A stretch of DNA of 64,000 nucleotides from Escherichia coli. GTDB taxonomy: Bacteria > Pseudomonadota > Gammaproteobacteria > Enterobacterales > Enterobacteriaceae. The first letter of the stretch is position 1; every line of letters begins with the position of its first letter. The translations under genes were made by a program, and so were the position numbers. The notes under the pieces were generated by a model, which was not told the origin of the DNA, searched no databases, and saw only the letters and a program-made list of their open reading frames with translations. This document shows, in pieces, positions 33,219 to 51,256 of this stretch. The DNA lies in assembly GCF_016903815.1 (NCBI RefSeq), contig NZ_CP069973.1, one strand, 5' to 3'.

Positions 33219-33489
33219 GATGTTACCGTAGTATGTGAGTATCCATCGAATAGACACCAAGCAAAAAAGCTCCCGAAGGAGCCTTCATTTTCACTTTTTT
33301 AAATCCAACGACAGACGGCTGGCATTTAAGTATTGTGAAATATTATCAAATGTAATCATCATTGATTTACAAAAGATACATTTTGCCCCGAAAGGATTCA
33401 TGTCAGAAACATCAAAAGATGATGTTCTATACTGGGAACCATGACAACACGGGCATCTAAAGTGAATATGGTTTGTAATATTGTCTACC

Positions 33490-33702
33490 TCAAAGCGCCA
33501 CTACATGAACAGCGGCAGGACCTTTAGGTCCGTTCTCAATACCAAATTCAACTTCCTGATTCTCAGTTAATGTTTTGAAATCGTTGCTCTGAATTGCTGA
33601 GAAATGGACAAACACATCTTTGCTGCCATCTTTCGGCGTGATGAAACCAAAACCTTTTTCAGGGTTAAACCATTTCACTAAACCAGTCATTTTGTTAGAC
33701 AT
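33490..33702 (-). CDS. cspI: Cold shock protein CspI-like
   Basis: [23 protein letters not shown]... with RNP1 and RNP2 motifs. Confidence 0.85.
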
Positions 33703-34064
33703 AATTATTACCTTTTGAAGAAATTAGCCCTTGGGCAGAATGGTCCGAAAAAAAATATCAGAGAGAAAAACCAACAAGGAAATCTCAAGAGGTACAAATA
33801 ATAAAATTATAACAATGACTGCTTCAGATAAATTTGTAACAAACCAGAACACCATTAACGCATGATTAACCACCCATAGCAAGGATTACTTTTGTAAAGA
33901 AAAACACAGCAATGAAAGAATAGCTTTATTTATTAATAAAACGTGTCATTCTGATTAAGACCTTTTATCTTACCCTTAAGATTTCAGGAATTTTGGCTCA
34001 TGGAAGAGTCCTTTTTATTTAAATTTTACATTCCGCGATGTAAATGTTCCGATTTAATATTACC

Positions 34065-36119: not shown

Positions 36120-36810
36120 CTCTTACCAGCCGCGCCCTAACAGGCGCACACGATCTGACATTTGCATCCAACTTCGTTACTTACGGCCCGTAAACGGGCT
36201 GCCCGGATAGGGAATCGATAACTGCTCTCCCATTTTATCCTCTTCAAGCTGGTGCTTTATGTAATCCTGTATCTTCGCCGTGTTCTTACCCACTGTATCG
36301 ACGTAGTACCCTCTGCACCAGAACTCCCTGTTCCTGTATTTGAATTTCAAATCACCAAACTGCTCGTAAAGCATCAGACTGCTTTTCCCTTTCAGATATC
36401 CCATAAACCCGGATACGCTCATTTTGGGCGGGATCTCCACAAGCATATGGATATGATCTGCACAGCATTCAGCTTCCAGAATCCGTACGCTTTTCCACTC
36501 ACACAGCTTTCTCAAAATACTGCCTATTGCTCTACGCTTCTCTCTGTAGAACACCTGTCTTCGGTATTTTGGCGCAAAAACTATGTGATATTTACAGTTC
36601 CATCGGGTGTGCGCTAAGCTCTTTTCGTTCCCCATTGGGACCCCCTTTTGATTTCTTGTTTGACACTTGCAGTTGCCAGACCGCAAGGTGTTTTAACAAA
36701 TCAAAAGGGGTTTTAATAACTGGCTCAAAGCTGAAAGCTTTCCGGAACCCCCAGCCTAGCTGGGGGTTTTCTGTGCACAATAAAAAACCCGCCTGAGCGG
36801 GTTTGAGATT
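36120..36810 (-). mobile_element. IS200-like insertion sequence (approximate bounds)
   Basis: 152-aa Y1 transposase with hairpins upstream (acccccagcctagctgggggtttt, aacccgcctgagcgggttt); about 0.7 kb, typical of IS200. Confidence 0.55.
36177..36635 (-). CDS. tnpA: IS200/IS605-family transposase TnpA (Y1 HUH)
   Basis: MGNEKSLAHTRWNCKYHIVFAPKYRRQ...HIHMLVEIPPK...; HUH motif (HIHML) and catalytic Tyr region. Confidence 0.85.
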   Translation of the reverse strand: MGNEKSLAHTRWNCKYHIVFAPKYRRQVFYREKRRAIGSILRKLCEWKSVRILEAECCADHIHMLVEIPPKMSVSGFMGYLKGKSSLMLYEQFGDLKFKYRNREFWCRGYYVDTVGKNTAKIQDYIKHQLEEDKMGEQLSIPYPGSPFTGRK

Positions 36811-37085
36811 GTGGTGCTTTTTGTGGGAGTCATCCACTTACGCACTTTGTTTTGCCATGCCAGCAGTTAGCTTCTGCTGTAAAACTATTCATGCAGCAAA
36901 CCTGCACTTCACCACAATGGTTAGCATACTTTTCCTGATTAAGATTTTGCCAAATATGCTAGCCATTGTTTCATGTATTGGACCTCCTTACTTTTTATTA
37001 AAGAGATCCAATATTCACTACTCTGTCCGTATCTCTACTCAGGCATCAGCCTTCTTCGTTATCGTATACAGACGAGCGATGAATT

Positions 37086-37301
37086 TTAATCAGTAATGAT
37101 GACATTTGCTGCTGCAGGACCTTTAGCACCACTCTCTATAGAGAAGGTAACCTTTTGACCTTCAAATAAGGTTCGATAATTATCATTCTGAATCGCAGAA
37201 AAATGCACAAACACATCTTTACTACCATCAACAGGAGAAATAAAGCCGAAACCTTTATCAGCGTTAAACCATTTTACTAAACCAGTCATTTTATTTGACA
37301 T
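37086..37301 (-). CDS. cspB: Cold shock protein CspB-like
   Basis: [23 protein letters not shown]..., 71 aa. Confidence 0.85.
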
Positions 37302-37601
37302 TCTACATTCCTTAACTTGAGCCTTTCGGCATAAATGGTTTGCATAACAGAAACGACTTCGTACTTAATTGGAGAGACTCAAAGAAGGAATAAGTGAATA
37401 ACACCTGAAATGAGAACTGCTTTAGTAAACTACTTCGTATATCGTCTGTTCTTCAAACCGACGCAATCATTAACGCATAGTTGAACATATGAAGCAATGT
37501 TTATTTTAGACATCCAGCCATCTTCAACCCCATCAAAAAACTATAGCTTTCTTCAGGAACGTGTGTATAGTGCGCCAAGTTATCAGTATTAAGGAATTTT
37601 T

Positions 37602-40865: not shown

Positions 40866-41021
40866 TTACTCCTCAGGTTCGTAAGCTGTGAAGACAGCGA
40901 CCTCCGTCTGGCCGGTTCGGATTCGTACCTCGCAGAGGTCTTTCCTCGTTACCAGTGCCGTCACTATGACGGTTAAACAGATGACGATCAGGGCGATTAA
41001 CATCGCCTTTTGCTGCTTCAT
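40866..41021 (-). CDS. hokD: Hok-family toxin HokD (RelF)
   Basis: Minus-strand translation MKQQKAMLIALIVICLTVIVTALVTRKDLCEVRIRTGQTEVAVFTAYEPEE (51 aa), not in the ORF track. Confidence 0.85.
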   Translation of the reverse strand: MKQQKAMLIALIVICLTVIVTALVTRKDLCEVRIRTGQTEVAVFTAYEPEE

Positions 41022-41092
41022 AGCCTGCTTCTCCTGTCAACGCAAAGCAGAAGTGTCACCTTCGGTGCGAAACAGAGATGTCATGCTTTGGT

Positions 41093-41380
41093 TCAGAGAA
41101 TGCGTTTGACCGCCTCGCTATATACTTCCGAGCGTTCTCTTTTCCCAACAGAAATCACGAAAACGACAACTTTCTCGTCTATAACCTGGTATACAAGGCG
41201 ATAGCCTGAAGACCGGAGCTTAATCTTGTAACAATCAGGCATACCACGGAGCTTGTTTGCTTCAATCCGGGGTGACTCAAGTACTTCAACCAGCTTCTTT
41301 TTCAACTGTTCACGTACCGTCGAGCCCAGCTTTCGCCATTCCTTTAGTGCCCGCTCGTCAAAATCCAGAAAATACGCCAT
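41093..41380 (-). CDS. relE: mRNA interferase toxin RelE
   Basis: MAYFLDFDERALKEWRKLGSTVREQLKKKLVEVLE..., 95 aa. Confidence 0.9.
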   Translation of the reverse strand: MAYFLDFDERALKEWRKLGSTVREQLKKKLVEVLESPRIEANKLRGMPDCYKIKLRSSGYRLVYQVIDEKVVVFVISVGKRERSEVYSEAVKRIL

Positions 41381-41619
41381 CAGAGTTCATCCAGCGTCAC
41401 ACGTACTGGCTTAGGATTACGAAGCCGTTCTTTCACTATCTCCACAAGTTCAGCATCTTCATCACTCAGGAGTGTCTGTTTGAACGGCAAGCGTTCATTG
41501 TCAGCGATATACTCGAGCATGAGACGAAGCGCTTCAGAAGGAGTTACACCCATTTTTTCAAGCGCGGCGTAAGAACGCGCTTTAAGTTCATCGTCAATAC
41601 GCAGGTTAATGCTACCCAT
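41380..41619 (-). CDS. relB: Antitoxin RelB
   Basis: MGSINLRIDDELKARSYAALEKMGVTPSEALRL..., 79 aa; 1-nt overlap with relE. Confidence 0.9.
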   Translation of the reverse strand: MGSINLRIDDELKARSYAALEKMGVTPSEALRLMLEYIADNERLPFKQTLLSDEDAELVEIVKERLRNPKPVRVTLDEL

Positions 41620-41643
41620 GTCTTACACCTCTTGTAATTACAA

Positions 41644-41949
41644 ATGTCATTACAAGTATCGCACTACAACATGCTTAGGGCAAGTCACGAAGGAAGTCAG
41701 AAAGTAGTCGTAAGAACGGTGATCACTGTCCGCTTTGTGCCAGGAGCAGCCATTGCTAAGTCCATCCTGTATTGTGCAGGTCAGCTCGTTTTTAAAGAGT
41801 CCGGCCATCATCTTACTGGTACAGACACCATATACTTTGTGACGGTCAGGCTACATATGCACAACTCAACTTATTCATCTATTTTTTGCTTTAGCATGTC
41901 AGTGTTGCTTTCTCGTCGGCGGGTGAGCGGTGACCTGACCTGTCGATAA
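41644..41949 (+). CDS. ydfV: Hypothetical protein, YdfV-position
   Basis: 101-aa ORF between relB and flxA; positional assignment only. Confidence 0.4.
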   Translation: MSLQVSHYNMLRASHEGSQKVVVRTVITVRFVPGAAIAKSILYCAGQLVFKESGHHLTGTDTIYFVTVRLHMHNSTYSSIFCFSMSVLLSRRRVSGDLTCR

Positions 41950-42151
41950 AGGAACGTAACACGTTTTATGCAACACCCGCATGCGGCAGAAAATTATTGC
42001 CGAACGTTTACCCCTGTCAACAAGCTTTACTTTCTGAGGCGCGCCAGCCCGCGAGGAAAACAATCTGAACATCAAACAATTAATGACACAAGAAATACGA
42101 TTAAAGATTTTTTTGTGCATGCCGATAGTGCTTTTTTAAAAGGAGAAATCT

Positions 42152-42484
42152 ATGTCTGTCACAATTCAGGGAAATACCTCAACCGTTATTTCAAACAACT
42201 CCGCCCCGGAAGGAACATCAGAAATAGCCAAAATCACAAGACAAATTCAGGTGCTGACTGAAAAGCTTGGGAAAATCTCATCGGAAGAGGGGATGACGAC
42301 ACAGCAGAAAAAAGAAATGGCTGCATTGGTACAGAAGCAAATTGAAAGCCTCTGGGCTCAACTGGAGCAGTTGTTAAGGCAGCAGGCAGAGAAAAAGAAT
42401 GAAGACGCGACAGTTCAGCCTGATAAAAAAGAAGAGAAAAAAGACGATACAAATACCGCTGGCACCATTGATATTTACGTCTAA
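42152..42484 (+). CDS. flxA: FlxA-like protein
   Basis: 110-aa ORF MSVTIQGNTSTVISNNSAPEGTSEIAKITRQIQVLTEKL... Confidence 0.8.
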   Translation: MSVTIQGNTSTVISNNSAPEGTSEIAKITRQIQVLTEKLGKISSEEGMTTQQKKEMAALVQKQIESLWAQLEQLLRQQAEKKNEDATVQPDKKEEKKDDTNTAGTIDIYV

Positions 42485-42879
42485 GTGACAGCCGTATTGT
42501 GGCCCTCATCGGGCCACTTTTCGCCATCAGCCTTTTCTTTAAAGACATATTATCTTTGTATCATTTCTGATAGTTAACATTACAAGATATAAGTAATGGA
42601 CGCACTCCCAATTAGTCTATTTAAATCGCCACGAGTTTAACTGACAACCCATGATCAATTATGAATTGCAACTATTTCTGTAGTCACTTTTGTGGGGACA
42701 GTCCACAAAACTGCCAACTTCCGCTTCTTGCTCTTAGCGGACATTAGCATAGGCTATTTACCATAACGCCTCATTACGCGCACCGCCCAGACTGACTCAG
42801 CGCGTTTCTGGCATATCCCCGGTAAAACAAGTAACAAACCACCCGAAAATGAACACCAGAAACGCGACTTAAGAATCTA

Positions 42880-44300
42880 CCCTATGAATGGATATGCACT
42901 CAACCGAATCGATCTTGGTTTCAATCTTTTTTATCGGGATCAGGCTTCTTTTTAGGTAACTTCGGGGGCTTAACTTGCTGATGACTTTGCGTTCGGCGCG
43001 TAAGCCAGGGATGGTCAGCTTTAGGTTTAACATAGTATTTTGAGCGTAAATCAATACGGGCATTATCCACTCGTTCATGGACACTCTTTTCATCATCCAG
43101 TGGTATAGGCTCCGGGCCATCAACATACTTTTCCCAGCCCAGCGCTTTCCCGTCATACAGAACGTTAATTTCACCGTCAAAGTTCTCGCATACAGTAACA
43201 ACCGAATGCCTAAGTCGATATCCCCGGCCCTCACTGCGTACCTGAAACGCACTGCTTTTGTACTGGAAAGTGAGATTTTTAGACAGAACGCGCTTCGCCT
43301 GTAGGCTGAAGATATAACCCAGTTCCTCTTCAGAATGGTGCACATCAAGATGAGCATTATCAGTAGTACGAGGCGACGTAGCGAACCGGTTGTTATAGGC
43401 TTCAATAAAGGTCGGCAACCATGCATTTGCTGTTTCAATATCACTGATATTCTGAAGCCGCATTTCTTTGACCAGCCTGTCCTGTAGTGTCTGATTGGCG
43501 CGCTCTACCCGCCCTTTTGCCTGCGGGCTGTTGGCATGGATTGGCTCGATGCCCAGTGTCTTTATCGCACGAGTGAACTGGGTCAGCTCACCTTCCCGCT
43601 CTGGGTTATTTACCCTGAATATACTGTGTCTATCAGAGTAGAGAGCGAGCGGTACGCCATGATCATTAAGGTAACCCCGGAGGGTTTCCATGTAAGCCCG
43701 GGTTGTTTCAGCAGGCACAAAACGCAACGCCATCAACGCACTGGTGGCATCATCAATGAAAACGATCAGTGTACATCTGGGGCCTCGATTTTCAAACCAG
43801 TCATGAGGTGAGCCATCAATCTGGATCAGTTCACCGTAAGATGGTCGTCGCATGCGGCGTTGATATATACGGGCAATTTTACGACGGCGTTCACGCCATA
43901 ACCCCTCTTCTATCATCCACTTTCTGAGAGTTTCAACGGATAAAGATAAACCGTGTATCTCGCGCAATTTTTCGCACGCAAACGTAGGTCCAAAATCAGC
44001 GTAACGGCCTTTGAGGAGTGAAATTACTGTTGCTCTGAATTCAGTAGAAAAGGAATTATTAGGACGCTTTCCACGTCGGTGGGAAACCAGACCAGAAGGC
44101 CCTTCATTTCTATACCGTTGCACCAGACGTTTAACCTGCCGAATAGAAATGCCAATGCGTGCCGCAGCTTGTTCCTGAATAATCTGAAGTCGGTGGAGTT
44201 CCTTATGACTCATCGTAACAGTCTCTTTGATCATGAAAAATCCCCCAGAGAATTGTCTGGGGACATTTTAGAATGGTTCAAAGGGGACATTACAGCTTGG
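42880..44300 (-). mobile_element. IS element with rve-type DDE transposase (IS481-family-like; ends not resolved)
   Basis: Single long transposase ORF; terminal inverted repeats could not be defined by eye. Confidence 0.4.
42921..44213 (-). CDS. DDE transposase, HTH plus integrase-core (rve) domain
   Basis: MSHKELHRLQIIQEQ... N-terminal HTH, central DDE-like core, Lys/Pro-rich tail. Confidence 0.75.
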   Translation of the reverse strand: MSHKELHRLQIIQEQAAARIGISIRQVKRLVQRYRNEGPSGLVSHRRGKRPNNSFSTEFRATVISLLKGRYADFGPTFACEKLREIHGLSLSVETLRKWMIEEGLWRERRRKIARIYQRRMRRPSYGELIQIDGSPHDWFENRGPRCTLIVFIDDATSALMALRFVPAETTRAYMETLRGYLNDHGVPLALYSDRHSIFRVNNPEREGELTQFTRAIKTLGIEPIHANSPQAKGRVERANQTLQDRLVKEMRLQNISDIETANAWLPTFIEAYNNRFATSPRTTDNAHLDVHHSEEELGYIFSLQAKRVLSKNLTFQYKSSAFQVRSEGRGYRLRHSVVTVCENFDGEINVLYDGKALGWEKYVDGPEPIPLDDEKSVHERVDNARIDLRSKYYVKPKADHPWLTRRTQSHQQVKPPKLPKKKPDPDKKD

Positions 44301-44717
44301 TGTTAACAATAGCCTGCTTCTCCGTGCCTTTCGGCACGTAAGAGGCTAACCTACATGTGTCTAGCATGAAATTGGCCTCAGATTAATGTTAAGCGTCTTG
44401 CAGGACGCGTAATGTTAACTGGGGCTTTTCTCTATCTGCCTTTGGTGTTCGTGCCCGAGGCAGATAGCCTCAAGCACCCGCCGTGATTCTACAAAAACAT
44501 TACCCACCTTTCCAGCAATTCACAACAACTCCATGCAAATAGTAAGTAGAATAATAAGTTATTAGTATTAGCAATTTACTTAGTTTCTAATTTGTGCCAA
44601 TGATTTTCATTTTTGCATGAAAAATACCTTAACATTTTATATTTACTTACTATTTGTAAGCCCCATCAGTTCTTTCTGATGGCGGCTGGTATTTCAGTTC
44701 CAGATATAGTATATGCT

Positions 44718-45746
44718 TTACGCCTTAATAGGGTTAATCACATTTCCGCTATCCGTACCATAGTATTTTTTTGTAGTCATGCCTTGTTTATAATAATCAT
44801 TTAACAGTTTGAGAAAGTTTCTTCCTTGCCTCTCATCTTCTATGACTAATTTACCATGCTCATTGGTCTTAAACTCTTCGTTCTGAAACATTTTTAGCAC
44901 ATCATTCATAGCTTGAACATCATTCTTTTCCAGAACCGTATGGTTACCTTTCTCAGCGATATGAGTGAGAATTTTTCTCAGTGATGGCTTATGAAGAATA
45001 GCTTGTTCAATAACATCTAAACCTTCAATAAGATCAAGTTCTTTAATTGTATTTAATGTTTTTTGTGCAGCTTCTGTAAACTCAACCTCCAAGCCTACAA
45101 TAGCCTCAAAACTTTTCTTATGAAATACATAAAATTGATCTTTTATATAAATACAATCGATTTTGTCATCAAAATTGACTGCGCTGCCATCAAATGATCT
45201 TAACTCTTTATCTGTTTTATCAAACAAAGCGAATACGCGCTGAGTCATATTTTGTGGTTCATTTGTTGTGACTTTCCCCCTGCTGATTTTTCGGAAAGAA
45301 TAAGTGACGTCAGCCCCCTTTTGGACTTTAATACAATAGGCCCACAAATCATTCTGAACCTCAGCAAGAGAGGTAAGTACAACTGGTTTATCATTCTTTA
45401 TATCGTTATTAATAACTTTTGAAAACGATATCGCGTTATTCATAGCATAGGCATAAATTTTATTATCAATATCATCATCAATAACAGTATGCTTTTTCAT
45501 CACAATATCATCTTTCGAAGCATGAGAAATAATCTGGTTTGATAAAGTATACTTAAAAAATTTAGCAATATCTGGAGCGATTGGAGCTTTAATGATTTTA
45601 AAATCGAATTTATCAACAACTCTTGCGGTTCTACTCATACCCGCTTTAAGATGTCTAGTAATGAAATACAACGATATTTTCGCCGCATCATCATCCTTAA
45701 GTTGCTCAGCATACTCTAATAATTCTTCAAGCTTTAACATTTTCAT
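44718..45746 (-). CDS. Soluble partner protein of candidate defense operon (KwaB-like by architecture, unverified)
   Basis: 342-aa Lys/Asp-rich AT-rich ORF; start overlaps the stop of the upstream membrane-protein gene (ATGA). Confidence 0.5.
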   Translation of the reverse strand: MKMLKLEELLEYAEQLKDDDAAKISLYFITRHLKAGMSRTARVVDKFDFKIIKAPIAPDIAKFFKYTLSNQIISHASKDDIVMKKHTVIDDDIDNKIYAYAMNNAISFSKVINNDIKNDKPVVLTSLAEVQNDLWAYCIKVQKGADVTYSFRKISRGKVTTNEPQNMTQRVFALFDKTDKELRSFDGSAVNFDDKIDCIYIKDQFYVFHKKSFEAIVGLEVEFTEAAQKTLNTIKELDLIEGLDVIEQAILHKPSLRKILTHIAEKGNHTVLEKNDVQAMNDVLKMFQNEEFKTNEHGKLVIEDERQGRNFLKLLNDYYKQGMTTKKYYGTDSGNVINPIKA

Positions 45747-46357
45747 TCCTTATGGGATTCAGCATAAAAAAGTTTTGGGCCCACGTCCTCAACATCAAGA
45801 AGATCATCTTCCTCCAAATACTTTGATTTAGTCAAAACCATACCAGTGCGTTTTTTGTCGCTTTCTAAATCCAAATATGTAACTTGATATAAAGTATAAT
45901 TAATACTTATTGTAGGATTTATAAGTATCATGCTTGAATTAATATATATTAAAGCCGTTACCGTTAACAATATTGCTATAGGTATAACATTAGTTAAAGT
46001 GGATAGATCCTGAAATACAAACGGAATTATATATGTAAAAAGATAGCTTATTGATTCATTGTTTTTATTTTCAATATCTATAACTCTTACAGTTCTACCA
46101 CTAGTGGCGCATCGACGTTTTATATTTTTTAAAAAAATTGTTAATCCTACAATACCAAATAATGATAATACACCAATGACACTGACCGCGCCAAAGTATT
46201 TAAAGAAAATAGTTAATGATTCAACACTTATACCTTTCCAATTTAAATAGCTTCTATAAGTATACAATTGCACAAAACACATGATAAAGAATAGGGGAAG
46301 GTATGACACTATAAATAGCGAAACTCTAGCACCTAAATGTAGTTTATTTACTCTCAT
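45743..46357 (-). CDS. Four-helix membrane protein of candidate defense operon (KwaA-like by architecture, unverified)
   Basis: 204-aa ORF with four hydrophobic stretches (about residues 12-32, 55-76, 103-115, 124-140) and an acidic C-terminal tail. Confidence 0.5.
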   Translation of the reverse strand: MRVNKLHLGARVSLFIVSYLPLFFIMCFVQLYTYRSYLNWKGISVESLTIFFKYFGAVSVIGVLSLFGIVGLTIFLKNIKRRCATSGRTVRVIDIENKNNESISYLFTYIIPFVFQDLSTLTNVIPIAILLTVTALIYINSSMILINPTISINYTLYQVTYLDLESDKKRTGMVLTKSKYLEEDDLLDVEDVGPKLFYAESHKE

Positions 46358-46565
46358 AACTACCCCACAGCCTACACGTCTAGTATTTTATGTTATTTCG
46401 AATAATTATGCATCAGATTACCATCCTACAATTGTGCATAAAACGAGCATTTTGCTGATTTTTCTGCGGATGCCTGAGACAGACAACCTCAAGCACCCGC
46501 AGCAATTTTACTTAACTCCCGCTACCTCGCCAATATGAAATCAATAAGAAAGGTGCTCCATAAAA

Positions 46566-47252
46566 TCACTCCTTCTCTTCTTTATCGTAGTGGAGTTGAC
46601 CAATTTTGATAAGAGGGCGTCCCTGAGATTTGCGGTGTAGATTGGTATCGCGCAGAGAATACACACAGCCACAATATTCCTGCTGATAGAATTTTTCGCG
46701 CTTGCTGATTTCAATCATGCGGGACGAGCCGCCCTGCTTGCGCCAGTTATAATCCCAGTACACCATGCCCGGATAATGCGCGACGGCTCGCCGCCCACAG
46801 TCGTTAACCTGCTGCATATTTTTCCAGCGTGAAATGCCCAGTGAACTGCTGATCACACTGAAACCATTTTCAGCAGCGTACAGCGCTGTCCGCTCAAAAC
46901 GCATGTCAAAACACATGGTACAACGGATCCCCCTCTCGGGCTCCCATTCCATTCCTTTGGCACGTTCAAACCAGTTGTCTGTGTCGTAATCAGCATCAAT
47001 AAATGGCACGCCGTGTTGTTCAGCAAAGCGAATATTCTCATCCTTACGAATTAAATACTCTTTCTGAGGATGAATGTTCGGGTTGTAGAAAAAGATGGTA
47101 TAGTCGATTCTCGAGGCCTGAAGTGCCTCCATCACTTCACCGGAACATGGAGCACAGCAAGAGTGCAGTAGTAGTTTGTTTGCCCCGTTTGGGAGCTCCA
47201 ATTTAGGCCGTTTGAAATCAGCAATAGTCATAAATATTTTTATTGGGGTCAT
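46566..47252 (-). CDS. DUF208 / QueH-like protein (putative epoxyqueuosine reductase family)
   Basis: [11 protein letters not shown] and FFYNPNIHP motifs plus additional Cys (CTMC, CGC) as recalled for the QueH/DUF208 family. Confidence 0.6.
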
Positions 47253-51198: not shown

Positions 51199-51256
51199 TT
51201 TTCTGGTGACGTTTGGCGGTATCAGTTTTACTCCGTGACTGCTCTGCCGCCGTTTT
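51199..51256 (+). ncRNA. dicF: DicF small regulatory RNA
   Basis: tttctggtgacgtttggcggtatcagttttactccgtgactgctctgccgcc followed by a T-run; matches the DicF sequence from memory. Confidence 0.8.

Follow-up and report, generated by a model that had tools for sequence, protein, structure and literature searches.

The window analysed here, a 64,000-nucleotide stretch of Escherichia coli DNA, carries on its minus strand a pair of coupled genes that can be assigned, with a probability of about 0.9, to a two-gene Kiwa defence operon residing as cargo in a cryptic Qin-like lambdoid prophage. The operon lies within an AT-rich insertion, both ends of which are marked by the promoter -10 region and 5' end of the prophage hokD (hok/sok) transcript. 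The cassette is an already-known system in an instructive context: the sequence-only reading had suspected Kiwa from the arrangement of the two genes, a suspicion confirmed by HMM and fold matches of both proteins, and its further suggestion that the system may be undescribed falls away, exactly this cassette being recognised already by RefSeq and PADLOC.

Both minus-strand open reading frames reported previously were present, 45743..46357 encoding 204 residues (kwaA) and 44718..45746 encoding 342 residues (kwaB), and the ATGA stop/start overlap at 45743..45746 could be read directly. Judged on sequence comparison, the ATG at 45740, giving a KwaB of 340 residues (44718..45740), is a likelier start than that at 45746, because it is the one used by RefSeq, because almost all homologues consist of 339–340 residues, and because an AAGGA Shine-Dalgarno motif lies 6 nt 5' of it, the same motif directly abutting the alternative ATG at 45746. 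With either start the kwaA stop codon overlaps the kwaB start or lies 0–3 nt from it, and the adjacent, co-oriented and tightly coupled genes have the Kiwa layout of kwaA followed by kwaB in one operon. Kyte-Doolittle analysis of KwaA revealed three strong hydrophobic segments (residues 8–34, 48–79 and 118–147) plus a weaker fourth (~101–117), and the AF2 model contains the four helices claimed earlier for this protein and, after them, a C-terminal beta domain; KwaB, which carries the DUF4868/KwaB domain, is indeed soluble and Lys/Asp-rich (K 12%, D 8.8%). The reported AT-richness of the cassette was equally evident, the GC content being 0.28–0.34 over 44600–46399 as against 0.45–0.51 in the flanks. 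The genes are bordered on the same strand by a non-coding stretch 5' of kwaA (46358..46470) specific to this cassette lineage, and by another 3' of kwaB (44493..44717) in which a terminator scan detected no intrinsic terminator; Kiwa cassettes located in other contexts share DNA homology with this one only as far as ~46360–46365 on the former side and ~44725–44742 on the latter.

Kiwa, the KwaA/KwaB defence system reportedly described by Doron et al. in 2018, is represented in several profile collections, and matches to these and to solved structures establish the membership of both proteins in the family. KwaA matched PADLOC PDLC00212 (1.3e-101) and KwaB matched PDLC00223 (5.1e-158), each over its full length, and KwaB additionally carries Pfam PF16162 (KwaB-like, formerly DUF4868; 2.4e-16). 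The precomputed annotation of a 100%-identical database cluster assigns KwaA to Pfam PF28043, itself named KwaA, while our own Pfam scan of the protein, with a library lacking PF28043, gave only a weak LrgA match. Scores with the NCBIfam models fell short of equivalog level, at 81.1 bits for KwaA (NF041622; curated cut-off 100) and 57.6 bits for KwaB (NF041623; curated cut-off 200), and these values show a divergent clade rather than non-membership. Searches of the PDB with profiles returned only KwaA and KwaB, that for KwaA at 8.8e-8. The AF2 models (pLDDT 81 for KwaA, 79 for KwaB) likewise found among PDB entries no significant fold other than solved KwaA and KwaB, which they matched over their full length: the best match of the KwaA model was 9mrx_A (E 1.6e-9; TM 0.76/0.79) and that of the KwaB model 9mrx_D (E 2.1e-14; TM 0.61/0.65 over 345 columns), the TM values for KwaB against solved KwaB structures ranging from 0.61 to 0.67. 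The solved Kiwa entries are 9mrx, 9mrg, 9mrr, 9mtn and 9nyu, and sequence identity to the solved O55:H7 proteins is only 17–23%. Of the DNA contacts known from the solved KwaB, three of the four that could be aligned are retained (D169/D193, K187/K211 and R233/R257); R167 is not conserved and aligns to N191, and N134 and R142 of the solved protein fall outside the reliably aligned region. Residue D193 (D191 in the 340-residue numbering) proved invariant across 39 homologues.

In the work of Zhang, Todeschini et al. on the Kiwa systems of E. coli O55:H7 RM12579 and ECOR strains (PMC11785009), five diverse Kiwa operons each gave protection in experiments with E. coli, a mechanism was described, and the family was divided into three deep clusters that differ in phage specificity. 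The ECOR49 system is close to that of O55:H7, and hence does not belong to the present clade. By analogy with these characterised systems, the present operon would be expected to confer defence: KwaA would form a membrane tetramer that senses the disturbed envelope during phage attachment, DNA injection or conjugation, and KwaB dimers docked on it would use the DUF4868 domain to bind the incoming DNA, thereby stalling phage replication and late transcription without DNA degradation. The details of sensing and specificity may differ from those of solved Kiwa, because of the low identity and the NCBIfam scores below cut-off. These same two features, together with the replacement of the DNA-channel residue R167 by N and the distinct specificities of the three deep clusters (PMC11785009), could be taken further to suggest that the pair, while of the Kiwa family, works differently, with another trigger or effector, or acts mainly as a superinfection-exclusion or anti-plasmid barrier. 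Such a divergence of mechanism is judged improbable, given the full-length superposition on the solved structures and on nothing else in the PDB, the conservation of three of the four alignable DNA contacts, and the protection afforded by every diverse Kiwa so far tested (PMC11785009).

With respect to the ends of the cassette, the 21-bp direct repeats described as bracketing it were found in the window only at 44461..44481 and 46480..46500, none being expected by chance, and proved to be longer than first described: the two copies extend over 41 nt (44452–44492 and 46471–46511) with 80% identity, and share a 14-bp identical core, CCTCAAGCACCCGC. These repeats are the promoter -10 region and 5' end of the hokD transcript. 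Empty sites, each with a single repeat copy, are present in 741 genomes, and in alignment with the empty site homology breaks precisely at the core. The right copy (46471..46511, minus strand; core 46487–46500) comprises the -10 element of the resident hok promoter and hok nucleotides +1 to +14; on the right side of the core its sequence is the same as that of the empty site, and on the left side it diverges and continues into a foreign, truncated arm resembling a hok leader over only ~30 nt. The left copy (44452..44492, minus strand; core 44468–44481) matches the empty site exactly on the left side of the core and diverges on the right side; it is made up of an arm that belongs to the cassette and contains a -10-like TAGAAT, and then of the 5' end of the resident hok leader. 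The arms of the two copies are laid out like attL and attR. Junction alignments against locus L002 and the start-to-start spacing of the repeats both define an inserted segment of 2019 bp (44482..46500, minus strand), its register arbitrary within the 14-bp core, and the proposal that the repeats delimit the cassette was upheld relative to the 741 empty-site genomes. The boundaries are fixed by these alignments; as to the route, the AT-rich foreign cassette would have entered precisely where transcription of the prophage hokD locus starts, by recombination across the 14-bp core with its diverged hok-like arms, duplicating the hok 5' end as it did so. When GTDB representative genomes were scanned for exact matches to the right junction, nothing was returned, so that no donor of the foreign hok arm emerged. 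The same cassette adjoins intact hokD in locus L006 and, with both repeat copies but another upstream neighbour, occurs in a different prophage in locus L004, abutting an intact Hok gene in each case.

The hairpin noted to the left of the left repeat is present, and is the first stem-loop of the hok mRNA leader. The complete leader, inclusive of the sok/mok region, was located at 44308..44479 (minus strand) by Rfam RF01794 with 105.6 bits (gathering score 59) over model positions 1–157, and shares 97–99% identity with the leader in intact hokD loci, although the final AUG of the model here reads AUU; the right repeat copy is too short to be detected with this model. In this strain the leader is orphaned, the hok toxin ORF not following immediately downstream in the window and lying instead 3.3 kb away beyond a transposon-like unit. 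A promoter scan placed the resident hok promoter (TTGGCG-17-TAAAAT; 46505..46533, minus strand) ~150 nt upstream of kwaA and on the same strand, at the correct distance from the Rfam-defined 5' end of hok mRNA, and this promoter is conserved in all hok loci compared. A second, cassette-borne site (TGGAAA-17-TAGAAT; 44486..44514, minus strand), promoter-like by consensus match only, stands in the place of the hok promoter before the downstream leader; the promoter-like sites found in the region numbered 13 as against 11.4 expected, and were not above chance. Kiwa insertion at the hok transcription start probably captured the hok promoter, which would have been left pointing into kwaA and would now drive kwaAB, while the downstream hok leader would have received a substitute promoter from the cassette.

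As described earlier, flxA, a transposase gene and replication genes lie nearby, but the implied connection of the cassette with the transposase was not sustained, since that gene is part of the separate transposon-like unit. The latter carries relBE, ydfV and flxA and splits hokD from its leader, and the relBE-hokD arrangement of K-12 is seen to result from its insertion. A transposase target-site duplication was rejected as the origin of the repeats, the copies being only 80% identical, the cassette ends having no inverted repeats, and the cassette occurring in L006 and L004 without the transposon unit. The slot itself is variable, as had been supposed: in related prophages the interval from hokD to DUF977 is a cargo hotspot containing other defence-type genes (AbiH, AIPR, DUF4209 and R-M). 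The idea that one hok-core boundary served all of these cargos was discarded, AbiH, DUF4209 and AIPR leaving ~75 nt of hok upstream sequence intact.

It is conceivable, albeit unlikely, that the repeats are att-like sites, and that the cassette moves site-specifically at the hok 5' end with a recombinase supplied in trans; the circular junction expected in that case is TGCCTGAGACAGACAACCTCAAGCACCCGCCGTGATTCTAC. The disposition of the arms, exactly that of attL and attR around an identical 14-bp core, would suit such movement, as would the presence of the cassette and both repeat copies in the second prophage backbone of L004 with its different upstream neighbour. Yet no recombinase gene was found in or beside the cassette, nor any inverted repeats at its ends, features that would have marked it as a mobile cassette. 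Every E. coli copy is near-identical and adjoins a hok leader, which fits one insertion event with later homologous exchange among prophages; cassettes with 80–83% identity occur in other contexts without the core, the other cargos of the slot use a different boundary, and the diverged hok fragment at the right end can more simply be seen as left over from recombination between two hok loci.

Surveys of other genomes showed the identical 2-kb cassette in 155 of 5,426 complete E. coli genomes, in each as a single copy with intact ORFs and an interior identity of at least 99.6%, the strain backgrounds sampled including human, bovine, poultry and wastewater. The RefSeq labels encountered in these genomes are KwaA family and KwaB-like (WP_001265627.1 and WP_000915483.1 / WP_251301666.1, essentially the same as the PADLOC subfamily members), but PGAP still names kwaA a hypothetical protein in most of the 155, and its naming of the proteins comes through rules other than the NCBIfam equivalogs. 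The nearest relatives occur in Klebsiella, Aeromonas, Vibrio and Shewanella, orthologues with 80–87% identity being spread across many genera, and some have defence-type surroundings; the Klebsiella relative occupies an island between PemK/MazE and DarTG, and that of V. cholerae a prophage in which it adjoins an SduA_C gene. In DNA searches with the cassette interior, no match was obtained in the phage collection and only a partial Vibrio match (68%) among plasmids, and a literature search for the combination of Kiwa with the Qin prophage found nothing.

That the cassette is an inert passenger of a decaying prophage, unexpressed or nonfunctional and kept by clonal inheritance, is very unlikely. 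The host prophage is cryptic, defective and rich in IS elements (IS200, IS66 and an ISNCY-type unit), the 155 near-identical copies could reflect recent clonal spread, and the scans yielded no terminator and no independently validated promoter; on the other hand, neither ORF is disrupted in any of the contexts sampled, among them two distinct prophage backbones and several backgrounds of strain, the orthologues have been maintained across many genera, and the conserved hok promoter lies directly upstream of the cassette genes. That the repeats have no connection with the cassette, and represent either a ubiquitous REP-like element or a match by chance, has negligible probability and is refuted: although hok/sok leaders, of which the core is part, form a multicopy family in E. 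coli, and the query flanks matched 4,321 genomes at a median of 2 places each, both copies are attributable to hok leader sequence, with only two in the 64-kb window, the left one inside the 105.6-bit Rfam match, exactly one at each empty site, and homology breaking precisely at the core.

The Kiwa operon at the hokD locus is of interest less for the family, the structure and mechanism of which are already published and which is catalogued in RefSeq and PADLOC, than for its setting, a base-pair-resolved example of a cryptic prophage gathering defence cargo. A clade some 20% identical to solved Kiwa that retains both folds should also be useful for comparisons aimed at the essential features of the system, and it is one that the NCBIfam equivalog models used by PGAP miss. 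Rather speculatively, and with the odds clearly against it, the hok/sok 5' end (-10 plus the first 14 nt) might serve as a recombination landing pad for defence cassettes. If so, a cassette with a diverged hok 5' fragment at either end could move from one hok locus to another among lambdoid prophages, capturing the constitutive hok promoter and handing the toxin locus a substitute, and defence would become linked to an addiction module both physically and in its transcription.

Temperate phages and their satellites have defence or moron hotspots, such as the lambdoid nin-region morons, and those of P2 and P4 were reportedly described by Rousset et al. in 2022, a study cited in PMC11785009. Like these, the interval between hokD and the DUF977/replication genes holds alternative cargos, Kiwa having its own insertion point at the hok transcription start and a duplicated core, while the boundary shared by other cargos lies ~75 nt upstream. 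Compared with the intact hokD of the Qin prophage (RF01794), with which the repeats share the -10 region and first transcript nucleotides, the left copy in the window heads a complete leader whereas the right copy is a short diverged fragment. The proteins are essentially those of the PADLOC PDLC00212/PDLC00223 subfamily and RefSeq, with no substantive difference. They resemble O55:H7 and ECOR Kiwa in the kwaA-kwaB operon, in full-length matches to both folds (a KwaA of ~200 residues with four transmembrane helices and a C-terminal beta domain, and a KwaB of ~320–340 residues with an N-terminal domain plus DUF4868), in the retention of some DNA-channel residues and in their association with prophages and defence islands, and differ from the O55:H7 system in a KwaB some 25 residues longer with N in place of R167.

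Both minus-strand open reading frames of the proposed membrane-plus-soluble-protein operon were confirmed at the coordinates given in the sequence-only reading, kwaA at 45743..46357 (204 aa) and kwaB at 44718..45746 (342 aa when the first ATG is used), and the ATGA overlap between them is present in the sequence. The likelier start of kwaB is, however, a second ATG at 45740, 6 nt 3' of that in the overlap, because an AAGGA Shine-Dalgarno that abuts the overlap ATG is properly spaced to it, RefSeq uses it, and nearly all kwaB homologues are 339–340 aa long, which fits this start. The GC content of the cassette is 0.28–0.34 against 0.45–0.51 in its flanks.

The suspicion that the pair might be Kiwa was supported. 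KwaA and KwaB gave full-length matches to the PADLOC models PDLC00212 (1.3e-101) and PDLC00223 (5.1e-158) respectively, PF16162 (KwaB-like, formerly DUF4868) was found in KwaB, and PF28043 (named KwaA) is assigned to a database cluster identical to KwaA. Structures predicted on alignments of 38–39 homologues (pLDDT 79 for KwaB and 81 for KwaA) were compared with the PDB using Foldseek, and for both models the only significant matches were solved Kiwa structures, aligned over the full length: 9mrx_D was the best match for KwaB (E 2.1e-14, TM 0.61/0.65, 17% identity) and 9mrx_A for KwaA (E 1.6e-9, TM 0.76/0.79, 22% identity). The KwaA model contains four helices and a C-terminal beta domain, matching the description of KwaA. 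Six KwaB residues have been shown to contact DNA (PMC11785009); four could be reliably aligned and three of these (D169, K187, R233) are kept, whereas R167 of the solved KwaB aligns to N. Taken together, the profile and Foldseek matches established both proteins as members of Kiwa.

The repeats bracketing the cassette proved real but longer than the 21 bp first proposed. The 21-mers occur at just their two positions in the 64 kb, with none expected by chance, and form part of a 41-nt repeat (44452-44492 and 46471-46511) whose copies share 80% identity and an identical 14-bp core, CCTCAAGCACCCGC. A full-length match to the Rfam hok/sok family RF01794 (105.6 bits) runs along the minus strand from 44479 to 44308; the model reads in the same direction as the hok mRNA, from the 5' end of the transcript (GGGUGCUUGAGG...) to the hok AUG. 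Since the model begins at the hok mRNA 5' end, the core is the opening 14 nt of a hok transcript, and the hairpin noted beside the left copy is the first stem-loop of the hok leader. To the right of the core lies the arm AGCAATTTTAC, the reverse complement of which, GTAAAATTGCT, is the -10 of the hok promoter, found as TTGGCG-17-TAAAAT in a consensus-type promoter scan.

A chimeric flank query located the empty site in 741 genomes, in each of which queH lies directly beside an intact hokD locus, the whole matching as one continuous piece at 95–99% identity and carrying one copy of the repeat site. Junction alignments resolved the left copy into resident left arm, core and foreign right arm, and the right copy into foreign left arm, core and resident right arm; the cassette is thus a 2019-bp insertion with an attL/attR-type arrangement of arms. 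Such an arrangement is what an att-like site-specific mechanism may have produced, and neither inverted repeats at the cassette ends nor a recombinase near the cassette was found. Strain TKEC21-59 carries the same cassette with both repeat copies beside an intact Hok gene, while in a different lambdoid prophage (comparison locus L004) cassette and both copies have a DUF551 gene rather than queH as upstream neighbour, and hok-upstream homology stops about 18 nt beyond the core. The most economical reading is that the resident hok 5' end recombined with a diverged hok 5' fragment already flanking Kiwa in the donor, after which the cassette would have spread among prophages through flanking homology. 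Following such recombination between hok 5' ends, the resident hok promoter (46533->46505) would now be directed into kwaA from about 150 nt upstream; the hok leader 3' of kwaB is itself preceded by a cassette-borne promoter-like match, TGGAAA-17-TAGAAT, in the promoter scan.

That the cassette occupies a variable slot was borne out by a survey with the contiguous empty arrangement as query, the hokD-to-DUF977 interval being a cargo hotspot in Qin-like and lambdoid prophages (examples at comparison loci L016:2400-5480, L017:3300-5830, L019:2480-5070 and L018:1790-3990). Its cargos include queH, AbiH with a partner (a 463-aa hypothetical protein), DUF4209, an AIPR protein, a deaminase, DUF5677, methyltransferases and an NgoMIV-type R-M pair. 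Most non-Kiwa cargos leave about 75 nt of sequence before the hok transcription start intact, so that they share a boundary at the position of queH and not at the core; only Kiwa interrupts the locus right where hok transcription begins, with the core duplicated. Beside hokD the slot is most often filled by queH (epoxyqueuosine reductase, DUF208; 46566-47252, minus strand), a tRNA-queuosine enzyme as prophage cargo. In strain FDAARGOS_144 (L003:6225-6610) and several others, an additional, unannotated stretch of about 375 bp lies between queH and the hok promoter region.

The cassette resides in a cryptic, Qin-like prophage that contains cspI/cspB/cspF, rem, hokD, relBE, flxA, dicC/dicB, DicF and ydfA-D. 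Rfam matches typical of Qin, namely two cspA-type thermoregulator leaders (cspB/cspI-type genes), the STnc490 sRNA and DicF, were recorded at 33463-33848, 36645-36768, 37070-37462 and 51201-51252. The transposase adjoining the cassette, earlier placed in its context, is unconnected with it and belongs to a separate transposon-like unit of 3274 bp (41035-44308), bounded by 28-bp imperfect terminal inverted repeats (TGT...ACA, 21/28 matching; 0 of 20,000 random pairs matched equally well) and flanked by a perfect 15-bp direct repeat, ATAGCCTGCTTCTCC (41020-41034 and 44309-44323), a target-site-like duplication present as a single copy in empty sites. The unit encodes a full-length ISNCY/IS1202-type transposase (42921..44234, minus strand, 437 aa) with relE, relB, ydfV and flxA as passengers. 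The repeats, transposase and passengers together agree with the published account of the IS1202 family (PMC10132070). Having entered at the ribosome-binding site and start codon of hokD, the unit splits the hokD ORF (40866..41021) from its leader/sok, now the immediate neighbour of kwaB. Earlier work had already recorded that relBE integrated into hokD (PMC6379469); no description of the TIR/TSD boundaries of the relBE-flxA unit was found in the literature. The full unit occurs in about 759 genomes, and K-12 retains only its left 63%, ydfW being the transposase C-terminus.

Of 5,426 complete E. coli genomes, 155 carry the cassette interior, always on the chromosome, in a single copy and ≥99.6% identical; it is absent from the deposited phage and plasmid collections. 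RefSeq names the KwaB there 'Kiwa anti-phage protein KwaB-like domain-containing protein'; PGAP calls kwaA (L001:13444-14058 and equivalents) 'KwaA family protein' in a few of the 155 genomes and 'hypothetical protein' in the majority, and this clade escapes the NCBIfam equivalog cut-offs for KwaA and KwaB. Orthologues of 70–87% identity are present in Klebsiella, Citrobacter, Enterobacter, Yersinia, Pectobacterium, Aeromonas, Vibrio, Shewanella and Edwardsiella, in contexts typical of defence genes: between early and lysis genes of a V. cholerae lambdoid prophage, beside an SduA_C (Shedu-like) gene (L007:4384-7590); between PemK/MazE and DarTG (DarT/DarG) in a Klebsiella island (L014:2108-7622); and, in an E. 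coli island, beside hlyE and a 1282-aa Integrase_2 protein (L010:1290-9023). Nucleotide homology to these cassettes covers the two ORFs only (about 44725-46365).

We infer a defence phenotype for this clade, with a mode of action taken by homology from PMC11785009. KwaA tetramers in the inner membrane would probably assemble with KwaB dimers into a supercomplex, probably activated by membrane disturbance at a phage attachment site or during DNA injection or conjugation; activated KwaB would then probably bind entering DNA non-specifically via its DUF4868 channel, and DNA-bound KwaB probably stall replication forks and so block late transcription. KwaB is open to inhibition by the phage DNA mimic Gam, and all five diverse Kiwa operons tested gave protection, each with a different specificity (PMC11785009). 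The alternative that the pair might be an undescribed system was rejected: PADLOC and RefSeq catalogue it, the structure and mechanism of the family are published, and the system is thus already known. What the locus adds is an insertion history at hokD resolved to the base pair, and a pair greatly diverged from the solved Kiwa: NCBIfam equivalog scores fall under their cut-offs (KwaA 81 vs 100; KwaB 57.6 vs 200) and sequence searches of the PDB matched Kiwa KwaA and KwaB alone, with weak E-values (1e-6 for single sequences, 1e-8 to 1e-9 for profiles), so that, as judged by sequence, it forms a divergent clade of Kiwa.
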